Source: Haplodiscus bocki
Taxonomy: Eukaryota
Assembly (NCBI GenBank): GCA_965655095.1
Contig: CBFHFQ010000241.1
Location: 1 to 64,000 of the forward strand
DNA: 64,000 nt
Reading direction: 5' to 3'
The notes beneath the pieces were generated by a model, which was given only the letters and a program-made list of their open reading frames with translations, did no database searches and was not told where the DNA came from. The translations under genes were made by a program, and so were the position numbers. Below are positions 2,659-6,532 of this stretch, piece after piece (position 1 is the stretch's first letter; each line of letters begins with the position of its first letter).

Positions 2659-2749
2659 TTACCTCTTTTTTATCATTTTATTTTTAGTTTCTATCAAGTC
2701 TTGATTAACTTGATATAATAAGTATAACACTTAATTTTTACTATGTAAA
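2659..2749 (-). promoter_or_regulatory. Early cassette 1: TTTACA-17-TATACT promoter, 5' hairpin, minigene MIKKR*
   Basis: -35 at 2744-2749, TG-extended -10 at 2721-2726, TATCAAGT/ACTTGATA inverted repeat at 2692-2715. Confidence 0.85.
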
Positions 2750-2892
2750 GTATTTTTTACACTTTTTTTAATTTTTTTTAATTTTTCTAGCTTTGCTTTA
2801 AAATCATTTAGGCTTATTTTTTCGCTAGGTTCTGCTAGTATATCCGCTAATCTCTTAGCATTATTAGGCTTATCTGTTTTTACTGTTCCCAT
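2731..2892 (-). CDS. Possible 53-aa hypothetical protein (not in ORF track)
   Basis: MGTVKTDKPNNAKRLADILAEP...; GGGGT upstream of ATG. Confidence 0.45.
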   Translation of the reverse strand: MGTVKTDKPNNAKRLADILAEPSEKISLNDFKAKLEKLKKIKKSVKNTLHSKN

Positions 2893-2903
2893 GATATTAC
2901 CCC

Positions 2904-3272
2904 CTAAATTTTGCCTAGTTTCTTTTGTTCTTTGTAGGCTTTCAAGATTAATTTATCTATCATCTTTTCTAGCTGTGATAAGCTTTTGCACTTATATTTA
3001 TACTTATGTTTATTGGTATCGTTTGCACGATACATAGCAAGAGTAAATAAGTATGATTTTTTTACTACTCTATTTTTGTGACCAAGACTGTAAACAATCA
3101 TATGATAATATACATCTATATAAAAACTCACCAATCTAGCTAATCTTTTTAACTGTTTACTTTTTTTATCTTTGTCGTATAATTCCCCACTAACATTGAA
3201 AAGCTTAAAAACTTTATCCGCCTTTTCTTGGTGTTTACCTTTGCATATGAAATAACATTTTTTTAGTTTCAT
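2904..3272 (-). CDS. Paralog family A small protein
   Basis: GKHQEKA N-motif and D.LILKAY.EQ.KLG.I C-motif. Confidence 0.85.
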   Translation of the reverse strand: MKLKKCYFICKGKHQEKADKVFKLFNVSGELYDKDKKSKQLKRLARLVSFYIDVYYHMIVYSLGHKNRVVKKSYLFTLAMYRANDTNKHKYKYKCKSLSQLEKMIDKLILKAYKEQKKLGKI

Positions 3273-3284
3273 GTTATATACTCC

Positions 3285-3371
3285 CTATTTTTTTTTTTTT
3301 AATTTCTTATTTTTTTGTTCCTTAAAAGCTTTTAAAACAATCTTATTATAATAAGATTGTTTTAAGTCCAT
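3285..3371 (-). pseudogene. Collapsed mini-paralog of family A (28 aa) containing a 34-bp perfect palindrome
   Basis: MDLKQSYYN-KIVLKAFKEQ fuses the family N- and C-termini; palindrome at 3332-3365. Confidence 0.65.
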
Positions 3372-3378
3372 GTTTATG

Positions 3379-3762
3379 TTATATACTTCCTAGTTTCTTT
3401 TGTTCCTCATAAGCTTTAAGGACTAAATTGTCTACCATCTGTTCCAAGTCTAATAAGTCTTTGAAATGATATCTATCTTTTTCAGAATAATAGCTATTAG
3501 CGTATAGCAAGGCTGTATCAAATATATTACCCTCATCTATCATATCACTTATTAATCCAATTTTTTGAACGGCGATATAGTAACAAACATCACCATATAA
3601 CACCATCAATCTAGCTAGCTTGAGTAAATTTTCGCCTTTGTAATATTCGCCTTTACTATCTTTGTAAAATTTGCCGTGTATTGTTATCAGTTTAAAAACT
3701 TCTAAAGCCTTTTCTTGGTGTTTACCGTTTCTGTGGTAGTATGTATTTTCTAATCCATTCAT
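3379..3762 (-). CDS. Paralog family A small protein
   Basis: YYHRNGKHQEKA...LVLKAYEEQKKLGSI. Confidence 0.85.
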   Translation of the reverse strand: MNGLENTYYHRNGKHQEKALEVFKLITIHGKFYKDSKGEYYKGENLLKLARLMVLYGDVCYYIAVQKIGLISDMIDEGNIFDTALLYANSYYSEKDRYHFKDLLDLEQMVDNLVLKAYEEQKKLGSI

Positions 3763-3784
3763 TTTATTTTTACCTCTTTTGTTT

Positions 3785-3866
3785 TTATCGTTTTATCATT
3801 TTAGTTTGTATCAAGTCTTAATCAACTTGATAATATAATAATAACATTTAATTTTTATATTGTAAA
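3785..3866 (-). promoter_or_regulatory. Early cassette 2: promoter + hairpin + minigene MIKR*
   Basis: TTTACA-17-TATTAT (TG-extended); hairpin 3809-3832. Confidence 0.8.
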
Positions 3867-3893
3867 GTATATTTTTAAATTTTTTTAAATTTT

Positions 3894-4160
3894 TTATATT
3901 TTTTCTATTTGTTCCTTGTATGCTTTTAAAATTATTTCCTCTAATTTCTTTTCCATAGCTATACCACGCTTTTTATAGACATAACTATCACAATAACAGT
4001 CGTGGTAAAAAATCCAATGTTTGCGGAATTTTTCTAAATATCTGTTTGTTGTATAGCTATTGACACAAGGTTGACCAAGTGATGGAATTAAGTCTAATAG
4101 CATGTTAGCCTTGTATTGATATTTAGCATTTCTATTATAGTATGAAAATTTAAGTCCCAT
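3894..4160 (-). CDS. Paralog family A small protein
   Basis: SYYNRNAKYQYKA...IILKAYKEQ. Confidence 0.85.
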   Translation of the reverse strand: MGLKFSYYNRNAKYQYKANMLLDLIPSLGQPCVNSYTTNRYLEKFRKHWIFYHDCYCDSYVYKKRGIAMEKKLEEIILKAYKEQIEKI

Positions 4161-4162
4161 GT

Positions 4163-4438
4163 TTATATATTCCCTAGTTTTGTTTGTTCATTATAAGCCT
4201 TGAGAATTAAGGCGTCTAATTCCTTTTCGTTCGACAAAGCATGATTTTTATTATACTCATAACTACCAATATAAAAGTGTAGGTAAAAAAGCCATTGTCT
4301 GCGGAAGTCCTCTAAATGTTCGTTTGTTGTATCGTGATTGGCACAAGGCTCGTGAAGTGATGGAATTAAATCCAAAAGCATATTAGCTTTATCTTGATGT
4401 TTGCCGTTTCGGTTATAGTATGAATATTTCAGTCCCAT
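4163..4438 (-). CDS. Paralog family A small protein
   Basis: SYYNRNGKHQDKA...LILKAYNEQTKLGNI; close duplicate of 3894-4160. Confidence 0.85.
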   Translation of the reverse strand: MGLKYSYYNRNGKHQDKANMLLDLIPSLHEPCANHDTTNEHLEDFRRQWLFYLHFYIGSYEYNKNHALSNEKELDALILKAYNEQTKLGNI

Positions 4439-4440
4439 GT

Positions 4441-4777: not shown

Positions 4778-5179
4778 TTATATCTCCGTTTTTTGTTTTT
4801 CTAATATTTTTTTTATTTTTTTTATTAACTTATCACAGTTTTTAAATTTCTTAATTCCTTTAATAAAAGCACCACTATACTTAATTTTACCGCTACTATC
4901 AAAAGAGATAATTCCAGTATCTTTTTTAGAATATTTGTCGTATTTTTGATATTTAACTTGAAAATAAATGGTACATATCTTATCAGTAGTAATAGAATGA
5001 AAAAGAGTTATTTCTAAATCACACTCATTCACAAATTTATTTTTCATGAATTGCACTCTTTTTATCATTAAATCTTTTTGTTCCTTAACAAAATCGTCAT
5101 CTAAAGTTATAAATCCTATAAACTCTTGTTCATATTTTTCTATTTTTTCTATTGATTTTAATTTAATATTTTTGTTCAT
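4778..5179 (-). CDS. Hypothetical basic protein
   Basis: 133-aa ORF behind cassette 3 with RBS. Confidence 0.7.
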   Translation of the reverse strand: MNKNIKLKSIEKIEKYEQEFIGFITLDDDFVKEQKDLMIKRVQFMKNKFVNECDLEITLFHSITTDKICTIYFQVKYQKYDKYSKKDTGIISFDSSGKIKYSGAFIKGIKKFKNCDKLIKKIKKILEKQKTEI

Positions 5180-5184
5180 TTTAC

Positions 5185-5270
5185 CTATCTCCGTTTTATC
5201 ATTTTATGTTTTTATCAAGTCTTGATTAACTTGATAAAATAAGTATAACATCAATTTTTTATTATGTAAA
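5185..5270 (-). promoter_or_regulatory. Early cassette 3: promoter + hairpin + minigene MIKRR*
   Basis: -35 at 5265-5270, -10 at 5242-5247, hairpin ~5210-5239. Confidence 0.85.
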
Positions 5271-5301
5271 GTATATTTTTAAATTTTTTTATTTTTTTTA
5301 A

Positions 5302-5511
5302 TTAATCCATGTAAAAATATCTAAACAATTTATACATTAAATTTTTAAGGGAATTACTCTTTATCTTAGCAAAATTTAATGTTATAGAATATCCGTCGTC
5401 GACAAGTTCAACACATGTTGTTTTATAGCCGTTATCATTTAACATCTTTTTTATAACTACCATTAGTTTATTATTACTCATTTTATTATAATTCATGTTA
5501 TTATAATTCAT
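5302..5511 (-). CDS. Paralog family B small protein
   Basis: IKKML.DNGYKT...LF.YFYMD shared with 38862-39050. Confidence 0.8.
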   Translation of the reverse strand: MNYNNMNYNKMSNNKLMVVIKKMLNDNGYKTTCVELVDDGYSITLNFAKIKSNSLKNLMYKLFRYFYMD

Positions 5512-5523
5512 ATCATTTTATCC

Positions 5524-5612
5524 TTATCGTTTTAGTTTTATCATTTTAGTTTTTTATCAAGTCTTGATTAACTTGATAAAATAAGTATAACATGTATTTT
5601 TTATTATGTAAA
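5524..5612 (-). promoter_or_regulatory. Early cassette 4: promoter + hairpin + minigene MIKLKR*
   Basis: -35 at 5607-5612, -10 at 5584-5589. Confidence 0.85.
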
Positions 5613-5620
5613 GTATATTT

Positions 5621-5992
5621 TTAAATTTTTTTATATAGGTTGCCTAGTTCTTTTTGTTCGTCGTATGCTTTTAAAAGTAAGTCGTCCATGATAGACTCAA
5701 GTTTTGAAAGATTTTCACAGTTATAGTCAAGGTTACCTTTATAATTATTTCTCAAAAGGTTTTTCTTAGCCCAATATACAGCTTTTTTAAATTCGCATGT
5801 TATTGAAAAGAAATAAACCCAACCATAAAAACTTTTAAAATCCGCTAATTCTTTTAAACACTTATTTTTATCATCGTATTTAAAACTTTTACTATTTTTT
5901 GCAATTTGTCTAAAAAGTATTGAGGCTATTTCTTGGTGTTTGCCGTTATCTCTAATGTATTTATCTTTTGTATCCACTTCTATTATTTTCAT
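5621..5992 (-). CDS. Paralog family A small protein
   Basis: NGKHQEIA...DDLLLKAYDEQKELGNL. Confidence 0.85.
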   Translation of the reverse strand: MKIIEVDTKDKYIRDNGKHQEIASILFRQIAKNSKSFKYDDKNKCLKELADFKSFYGWVYFFSITCEFKKAVYWAKKNLLRNNYKGNLDYNCENLSKLESIMDDLLLKAYDEQKELGNLYKKI

Positions 5993-6010
5993 GATATTTA
6001 TCCTTATTTT

Positions 6011-6092
6011 TTATCGTTTTATCATTTTAGTTTTTATCAAGCCTTAATCGACTTGATAATAATAGTATAACATAGGTTTTTTATTATGTAAA
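6011..6092 (-). promoter_or_regulatory. Early cassette 5: promoter + hairpin + minigene MIKR*
   Basis: -35 at 6087-6092, -10 at 6064-6069; hairpin variant keeps pairing. Confidence 0.85.
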
Positions 6093-6110
6093 GTATAATT
6101 TTAAATTTTT

Positions 6111-6428
6111 TTAGATTTTTTTTAGCTTTCTTTGTTCGTCGTATGCTTTTAAAACTAAGTCGTCCATCATATCCTCAAGCTGTGAAAGACTTTCACAGTT
6201 ACCTTTATAAAGAGTATGTTGTCTACCAATCTTAACAGCTTCCTTAAAGCTATAACTATCATAGAAATAATAAATTACAATTCTATAAAATCTCCATGTT
6301 TTTTCTAATTCTTTTAAATACTTGCTTTTATTATCGTATTCATGGTGTATCCCATAATCTGTAATCTGTTTAAAAAGTTTGTTAGCTTTTTTCTGATAGT
6401 AGCCTTTTTCTGTGTAGTATATTCTCAT
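6111..6428 (-). CDS. Paralog family A small protein
   Basis: YYTEKGYYQKKA...DDLVLKAYDEQRKL. Confidence 0.85.
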   Translation of the reverse strand: MRIYYTEKGYYQKKANKLFKQITDYGIHHEYDNKSKYLKELEKTWRFYRIVIYYFYDSYSFKEAVKIGRQHTLYKGNCESLSQLEDMMDDLVLKAYDEQRKLKKI

Positions 6429-6448
6429 TTTATCATTTTATCCTTATT

Positions 6449-6532
6449 TTATCGTTTTAGTTTTATCATTTTATCACCAAGACTTGATTGACTTGATAAA
6501 ATAAGTATAACATGTATTTTTTATTATGTAAA
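6449..6532 (-). promoter_or_regulatory. Early cassette 6: promoter + variant hairpin + minigene MIKLKR*
   Basis: -35 at 6527-6532, -10 at 6504-6509. Confidence 0.8.

Follow-up and report, generated by a model that had tools for sequence, protein, structure and literature searches.

Met-Ile-Lys…Arg minigenes in the leaders of a PeSL-like early cassette of a tailed phage

Why should the leaders of several predicted early genes of a phage each hold a tiny reading frame that starts Met-Ile-Lys and stops directly after Arg? The question is raised by a 64,000-nt stretch of DNA (positions 1 to 64,000 of contig CBFHFQ010000241.1 in the Haplodiscus bocki assembly GCA_965655095.1; hereafter the window), where an earlier note had described such upstream open reading frames (uORFs), or minigenes, in every leader of a repeated cassette and had suggested ribosome loading, re-initiation, tRNA sensing or tRNA sequestration as their role. 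The window runs 1.5 times through a tailed-phage genome of 41,859 bp (repeat period 41,859 bp); since both copies are identical at every cassette, those at +41,859 are not independent and each leader was counted once. Seven tiny Met-Ile-Lys…Arg frames are real, and they lie within copies of one promoter-hairpin-ribosome-site module. We put at about 0.52, little better than even, the probability that they are an incidental by-product of the leader of this cassette with its predicted strong early promoter, a unit resembling the promoter-early stem-loop (PeSL) cassettes of T4-type phages (PMC2839356 and PMC4122927), and are neither a selected peptide nor a tRNA trap. The earlier observation is borne out in part, and its interpretation is supported in part.

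The minigenes and the cassette that carries them

All eight sequences quoted in the earlier note are found at the minus-strand positions given there (Table 1; an asterisk marks the stop): MIKKR*, MIKR* (three times), MIKRR*, MIKLKR* (twice) and MI*, the last (ATG ATA TGA, 5508-5516) overlapping the gene start at 5511, as had been said. The MIK..R frame is present in 7/7 leaders that have both the promoter and an ATCAAG hairpin, and the pattern exceeds base-composition chance, since dinucleotide shuffles (3000 per leader) yield a short Arg-ending uORF in just 0.8-4.1% of cases. It does not extend to every cassette leader, however: a promoterless leader with hairpin and Shine-Dalgarno sequence (SD), at 39743-39696, has no upstream ATG. 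Among 11 early-type minus-strand promoters, seven are followed by MIK..R, two (41675 and 11096) by no upstream ATG, one by MEQI* and one by an in-frame ATG. An Arg ending characterizes seven of the nine ATG-ATA uORFs of the seven leaders, but not MI* or MIK* (6425-6436), the latter having been overlooked. The remark that the frames differ only by whole codons carries no weight as evidence, because the length difference between two ORFs is always a multiple of three; the uORFs at 2676 and 40212 show a net difference of 7 nt before a shared AAGAGGT and use different stops. The last Arg codon does vary, as had been noted (CGA, AGG, AGA).

The cassette has a constant order: A-tracts, TTTACA-17-TGnTATACT, 6 nt, ATCAAGTY-N6-RRCTTGAT, an A-rich leader, an SD and the ATG of a small ORFan. 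A-tracts lie upstream of the -35 in 7/7 cassettes, and a TTTACA-17-TATACT/TATTAT promoter with TG is present at 6/6 cassettes within 2200-6700 and likewise at 40277; the only sites in 2200-6700 scoring 10-of-12 with TG are the cassette promoters. The initial A of ATCAAG comes seventh after the -10 box and is preceded by T, a position at which sigma-70 transcripts usually start. When folded from this predicted +1, 5/6 leaders open with an 8-bp terminal stem (z -2.2 to -4.6), with a stem energy of -7.4 kcal/mol in 4/6, and the rest of the leader past the stem is single-stranded in 5/6 folds. Seven of eight folded leaders belong to the ATCAAG hairpin family, and the hairpin forms in all seven, once weakly. 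Downstream of it the leaders are 53-61% A, unstructured and built from NGATAAAA units, the first of which is the right arm of the hairpin itself. Across the alignment of eight hairpin copies, 95% of 80 cells are paired, and 4/10 pairs vary one-sidedly through G-U. The stem has no U-tail and is followed by A; a sequence scan called no terminator at the cassette hairpins, its two terminator-like sites in 2200-6700 both lying elsewhere.

Ribosome signals distinguish the genes from the minigenes. At the gene starts the SD duplexes reach -6.0 to -7.1 kcal/mol in 7/7 cassettes, whereas the best duplex for a minigene ATG is 0 to -3.7 kcal/mol, in 5/7 falls inside the hairpin, and qualifies as an SD for none of the seven. 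AAGGA stands 4 nt before the ATGs at 5516 and 6436, a spacing that suits the gene starts better. The minigene AUG lies 5-15 nt from the hairpin stem and its ATG 23-41 nt from the gene ATG, in all three frames, with stop-to-gene-start gaps of 5, 5, 12, 16, 18, 20 and 22 nt; in two of the seven leaders the SD is inside the minigene frame and the stop is 5 nt before the gene start. The caveats attached to the earlier note (no SD, shared ancestry, low complexity) have become the main explanation.

Table 1. Cassettes and related features of the phage genome (window coordinates; blank, not given)
Feature	Span	Strand	-35	Hairpin	SD	Gene start	Remarks
Cassette 1	2648..2777	minus	2749	2714-2693		2653	-10 ends 2721
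Cassette 1 uORF MIKKR*	2676-2659	minus			AAGAGGT (2667-2661)		AAG AGG TAA of the uORF is the SD
Cassette 2	3757..3895	minus	3866	3831-3810	AAGAGGT 3778	3762	uORF MIKR* 3799-3785
Cassette 3	5174..5298	minus	5270	5235-5214		5179	
Cassette 3 uORF MIKRR*	5202-5185	minus			GGAGAT (5192-5187)		CGG AGA TAG of the uORF is the SD
Cassette 4	5506..5640	minus	5612	5577-5556		5511	
Cassette 4 uORF MIKLKR*	5544-5524	minus			TAAGGA		stop runs into SD
Cassette 4 second uORF MI*	5516-5508	minus				5511	ATGA overlap with gene start
Cassette 5	5987..6120	minus	6092	6057-6036	AAGGA 6005	5992	uORF MIKR* 6025-6011
Cassette 6	6423..6560	minus	6532	6497-6476	AAGGA 6445	6428	weakened hairpin; uORF MIKLKR* 6469-6449
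Cassette 6 second uORF MIK*	6436-6425	minus				6428	ATGA overlap with gene start
Cassette 7	40176..40305	minus	40277	40242-40221	AAGAGGT 40196	40181	uORF MIKR* 40212-40198
Cassette 8, promoterless	39691..39745	minus		39743-39722	39710	39696	same hairpin; no upstream ATG
Helicase promoter	36950..37017	minus					motif AAATGATAAA as half of a 7-2-7 inverted repeat
ORFan array	2257..6428	minus					12 small ORFans fed by cassettes 1-6; seven form one paralogue family ending LKAY.EQ

Origin of the frames in the leader

The leader words themselves spell the minigenes. AAAA followed by a TGATAAAA unit reads ATG ATA AAA; the next unit is in register with these codons and reads NGA TAA, giving MIKR*, MIKR*, MIKG* and MIK* for N = A, C, G and T, respectively, and the T case exists at 6436. 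All seven leaders decompose into GATA units, whose preceding base is T 16 times, C five times, G three times and A once. AAAACGATAA is identical letter for letter in five leaders, including one CGA TAA, and is, judged from sequence, a single event by descent. The remaining two frames take their ending from the SD of the gene that follows (AAGAGGT or GGAGAT), read as AGG TAA or AGA TAG. AAGAGGTAA precedes seven genes, four of them without a minigene, GGAGATA precedes several further genes, and most genes behind either word lack any uORF. Two pairs of paralogues also speak for an incidental origin, one member of each (39696 beside 40181; 39050 beside 5511) having no minigene. Of 50 minigene-less leaders, 14 contain an Arg+stop hexamer no more than 30 nt from the start (the leader and codon counts used 57 gene starts, of which two, 7562 and 41632, were mis-set, affecting two leaders and a few codons).

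In the reading we favour, host sigma-70 RNA polymerase would start at the A of ATCAAG, as predicted from spacing, and the mRNA would open with the 8-bp stem, which would keep pyrophosphohydrolase and RNase E away from the 5' end. Behind the stem, the single-stranded A-rich stretch would be a landing pad that feeds 30S subunits to the SD, and cassettes that duplicate and recombine would reshuffle the paralogous early genes, as proposed for PeSLs. ATG ATA AAA would then arise wherever AAAA happens to precede TGATAAAA, with the following NGA TAA an Arg-stop if N is A or C; where the second unit has been lost, the frame would run on into the SD, itself AGG TAA or AGA TAG. Some low-level minigene translation may occur without being the purpose of the cassette. 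A protective 5' stem is the likely role of the hairpin, because both RppH and RNase E depend on a single-stranded 5' end (PMC3997798). Some paralogues in relatives of the phage are mosaic, for example P0006, with 42% identity at the N-terminus and 100% at the C-terminus; this would fit shuffling between cassettes without demonstrating it.

Several observations weigh against an incidental origin. The 12-mer around the ATG, AAAATGATAAAA, is invariant in 7/7 leaders, kept like the -35 and -10 boxes while neighbouring columns vary; it is centred on the ATG and ends at codon 3. The nine genomic copies of AAATGATAAA all lie in early leaders, on the transcribed strand, although anchoring on the ATG makes this look somewhat stronger than it is. 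The in-frame A-run is four long in 6/7 while post-stop runs vary from two to six, a point offset by the A-run preceding the ATG, which is likewise four in 6/7. Only 2/14 frames in the two other phases end in Arg, against 7/7 in the real phase, and when the motif was grafted onto 17 other leaders, 27/255 frames did so. That Arg-stop should survive all three independent length changes would, on a rough post hoc estimate, have a probability of 0.04-0.11. Both minigene-less paralogues, gene 39696 (of gene 40181, which has a minigene) and gene 39050 (of gene 5511, likewise), also lack a promoter of their own, as a ribosome-loading role would equally predict. The hairpin fares imperfectly too: the copy at 6497 is weak (z 0.0), and among the eight copies no pair has changed on both sides, covariation not exceeding the shuffle control. 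Some constraint likely acts on the motif; its target may be a start codon, a site for a binding protein or the A-rich strand as such.

Two cassettes are truncated. Cassette 8 (39722-39745, minus strand) retains just the hairpin, which contains the stop codon of the upstream gene, and the SD, and a cassette at 39050-39103, minus strand, consists of A-tracts and a -35 only.

Alternative roles for the minigenes

A start codon is the first candidate for that constraint. AAA-AUG-AUA-AAA may be an SD-less start and the translated short frame may act in cis, by 30S loading or leader protection, with the Arg-stop incidental; we regard this as possible but on balance unlikely. Besides being invariant, AAAATGATAAAA is A-rich and single-stranded in 5/6 folds, and 70S initiation in E. 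coli is helped when the first codons are A-rich (PMC12661326). An AAAATG also stands upstream of two promoter-proximal genes that lack a clear SD, in frame for the helicase and as MEQI* with an ATGA overlap for gene 38782. MI* and MIK* overlap their genes by ATGA, two of the seven frames contain the SD and stop 5 nt before the gene, and in axe-txe mg2 and LEE4 a leader minigene is described as enhancing downstream translation or protecting the mRNA (PMC8708949). The same paper, however, reports no sign of translation from an ATG of the txe leader that lacked a well-positioned SD; here no minigene has an SD, the AUG is 5-15 nt from a stem, all seven genes have a good SD of their own, and the promoters at 41675 and 11096 lack an upstream ATG. 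Nor are spacing and frame to the gene start kept (23-41 nt; frames 0, 1 and 2), as a uORF acting in cis would lead one to expect. Re-initiation, which the earlier note had considered, fits badly for 4/7 minigenes, those with gaps of 16-22 nt, because a gap of about 20 nt almost abolishes coupling (PMC10666635, available text), and the full range of 5-22 nt counts against a cis-acting start as well.

The helicase and methyltransferase leaders deserve description in their own right. Neither candidate start of the helicase (36973 or 36952) is preceded by a clear SD, homologues align from residue 6-8, and the ATG at 36973 is in frame and without an SD; just past the helicase promoter lies a perfect 7-2-7 inverted repeat (36958-36975, minus strand). 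The uORF MEQI* (38779-38793, minus strand) overlaps the methyltransferase gene start at 38782 by ATGA, the SD of that gene being GGA only.

A binding site is the second candidate. TGATAAAA may be a protein half-site, perhaps one resembling a Fur box, with a phage repressor or host regulator binding the repeat across +1 and its downstream copies to shut the early promoters and the ATG arising as a by-product; we think this improbable. The same octamer forms both inverted-repeat arms at the DNA level and the minigene start, the helicase promoter carries its perfect repeat with the same half, and TCAAG..CTTGA is repeated between -35 and -10 in some unrelated contigs, as operators are. A weak Cro/C1-type helix-turn-helix gene at 11635-11859 is a candidate repressor (HTH_26, E 0.0006, below the curated cut-off). 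Against this, the distance from hairpin arm to next unit ranges from 8 to 21 nt and is not helically phased, the downstream copies are half-sites only, and the G-U-type stem changes suit RNA pairing better than a DNA palindrome.

The roles built on tRNA turn on codon usage. ATA is the commonest Ile codon of the phage (481/912, 53%) and AGA the commonest Arg codon (248/518), CGA occurring 38 times. The description of the last codon as a typically rare one holds for CGA (7% of the 518 Arg codons) but not for AGA (48%) or AGG (18%), figures for the phage that may not mirror usage in the host. Genes directly behind the leaders use CGN in 2/26 Arg codons, compared with 122/300 in replication and structural genes (p 0.0005); they equally avoid AGG (0/24 AGR codons, p 0.0002) and have a G+C content of 27%. 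Replication genes alone use CGN in 55/127 Arg codons, and no tRNA gene was found in the phage genome.

The composite mechanism, in which ribosomes would translate the SD-less minigene behind the protected 5' hairpin, pause at CGA-stop and so link early output to host Arg-tRNA or drain it, is to our mind very improbable. If true, the phage would have a host-takeover device of multi-copy minigenes linked to promoters, while the early genes themselves avoid CGN (2/26). A bar-like sequestration of tRNA is poorly supported, given the lack of an SD, the differing last codons (two of them being the SD itself), the lack of a phage tRNA gene and the preference for ATA and AGA. Least probable of all is a pure tRNA sink or sensor, in which stalling at the last Arg codon and peptidyl-tRNA drop-off would starve host translation while sparing the AGA-rich early genes: 5/7 minigenes end in CGA, the leader-led genes shun CGN, strong promoters would give many minigene copies, and peptidyl-tRNA-mediated minigene toxicity is established in E. 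coli (PMC2490762, PMC8708949, available text), but the parallel depletion of AGG points to base composition, two minigenes end in AGG or AGA (together 66% of phage Arg codons), the replication genes use CGN freely in a phage without a tRNA gene, toxicity depends on the strength of the ribosome binding site (PMC8708949) where here there is no SD, and peptidyl-tRNA drops abruptly past positions +3,+4 (PMC2490762) where here Arg is codon 4 to 6.

The phage, its relatives and known systems

The window belongs to an 83,728-bp contig within a 1.5-Gb assembly, and because that whole contig is a bacteriophage concatemer it is likely a co-sequenced contaminant. Four sequencing runs from one study are listed, none as holding RNA. 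The phage encodes a gp2.5-like SSB, DNA polymerase, NrdA, NrdB, exonuclease, primase, terminase, portal, tape measure, spanins and helicase, and its tail genes are of siphovirus type. The best polymerase matches (43-47%) are to Pseudoalteromonas, Alteromonas and Vibrio phages and to Acinetobacter phage Loki. An NrdB search made for a clue to the host returned one metagenome-assembled genome at 74% and Caulobacterales at 60-63%, all of them cellular ribonucleotide reductase loci to judge from the 1/80 inspected. The contig probably joins two strains: the copies at +41,859 show no differences across the first 17,000 bases, and the 152 substitutions between copies within 32131-41859 all fall inside 32333-33920, in the central tail fibre gene. 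The genome copies diverge from the portal gene on (17564 onward) and in that fibre gene, not in the early regions. Two tail-region genes (28431-29991, plus strand) have RCC1-like repeats.

A type II hammerhead ribozyme (2185-2253, minus strand; RF02276, 53.5 bits against a gathering score of 37) that retains CUGAUGA, GAAA and GUC separates the cassette array from the SSB and polymerase genes. It is the only Rfam match within 1-42000 and would, on its sequence, cleave read-through early transcripts; hammerheads located between phage genes are already known (PMC3088659, available text). The array genes are less tractable: 0/12 match PHROGs or Pfam, and the seven paralogous ORFans (2904-6428, minus strand; 88-127 aa), which share a conserved C-terminal L..L.LKAY.EQ, match no family. 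A search of the Atlas with one paralogue gave no usable match. Only ten relatives of the paralogue family were found, all from three ENA contigs (41,888, 42,550 and 42,665 bp; proteins compared).

Searches for the cassette elsewhere gave little. In viral contigs the exact hairpin had no match and paralogue alignment confirmed 0/39 candidates; SSB relatives at 23 loci (39-66% identity) showed no such cassette by promoter scan. The promoter-plus-hairpin pattern matched four viral and eight metagenome sequences, none similar to the window by blastn, and a looser pattern without the -35 gave 120 matches, mostly chance. Among other viral and metagenome contigs with a promoter and ATCAAG hairpin, an upstream ATG is present in 6/18 clusters with an SD-led start, and none of these 18 unrelated clusters reads MIK or ends in Arg; 7/25 clusters had been left out for want of an SD-led start, and at least two cluster pairs are redundant. 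Many unrelated viral contigs also have consensus promoters with a hairpin that starts about 5-9 nt past the -10, and some repeat a TCAAG..CTTGA palindrome between -35 and -10. The proposal of a special status for ATCAAG as the +1 stem of phages in general was dropped (at least 121 matches in at least 19 clusters, against 24 in 12 for ATAAGC and 1 for AGTAAC), and only the statement that +1 hairpins are common was kept. In titles and abstract openings, we found no description of phage promoters with an ATCAAG/CTTGAT inverted repeat, and a literature search on repeated early promoters found nothing.

Among known systems, the lambda bar minigene is reportedly a two-codon frame, AUG AUA stop. The frames here share with bar and other toxic minigenes the AUG AUA start and very short length, and that at 5508-5516 is exactly AUG AUA stop. 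They differ in that a two-codon frame is found in only one of nine ATG-ATA uORFs, the seven main frames having 4-6 sense codons, in lacking an SD, in having three different last codons, and in that the phage prefers AUA and AGA; by their length and lack of an SD the minigenes are not of the bar type. In the cis-acting leader minigenes axe-txe mg2, LEE4 of enterohaemorrhagic E. coli and B. subtilis ycbK (PMC8708949), a short frame also lies in an A/U-rich leader near the main start, and the SD region that MI* and MIK* have in common with the genes behind them has its counterpart in the ycbK minigenes. Those known minigenes are led by an SD, however, whereas the seven here have none and vary in spacing and frame. 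Like 5'-terminal stabilizing stem-loops (PMC3997798, available text), the cassette stem would pair the first nucleotide, although here the start site is predicted from spacing only and the stem is modest.

The nearest likeness is to PeSLs (the available text of PMC2839356 and PMC4122927), which share a repeated intergenic unit of about 100 bp, AT-rich upstream DNA, sigma-70 -35 and -10 boxes, a stem-loop, an SD and a start codon. PeSL units are likewise clustered before ORFans and have been proposed as recombination sites, and one subclass also places the stem-loop downstream of the -10. The differences are a 42-kb siphovirus-type genome with eight copies, rather than a T4-like myovirus with about 50, and an A/U-rich stem at the predicted +1 without a U-tail, rather than an often G/C-rich stem acting as terminator or attenuator; the available PeSL text mentions no leader minigene. 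We therefore class the cassette, on its sequence features, as PeSL-like and not as a PeSL, because it departs from them in two defining points, the T4-like genome and the terminator-type stem. On the favoured reading it is a modest extension of a known type of unit: the phage is a small one of siphovirus type, and the stem-loop stands where the transcript is predicted to begin instead of serving as a terminator. The leaders also provide a worked example of an A-rich repeat and an SD generating seemingly conserved Arg-stop uORFs. The cassette would gain greater weight should the invariant AAAATGATAAAA turn out to serve as an SD-less start or an operator: seven natural leader variants and one that lacks the motif form a ready series on SD-less uORFs in phage early expression.

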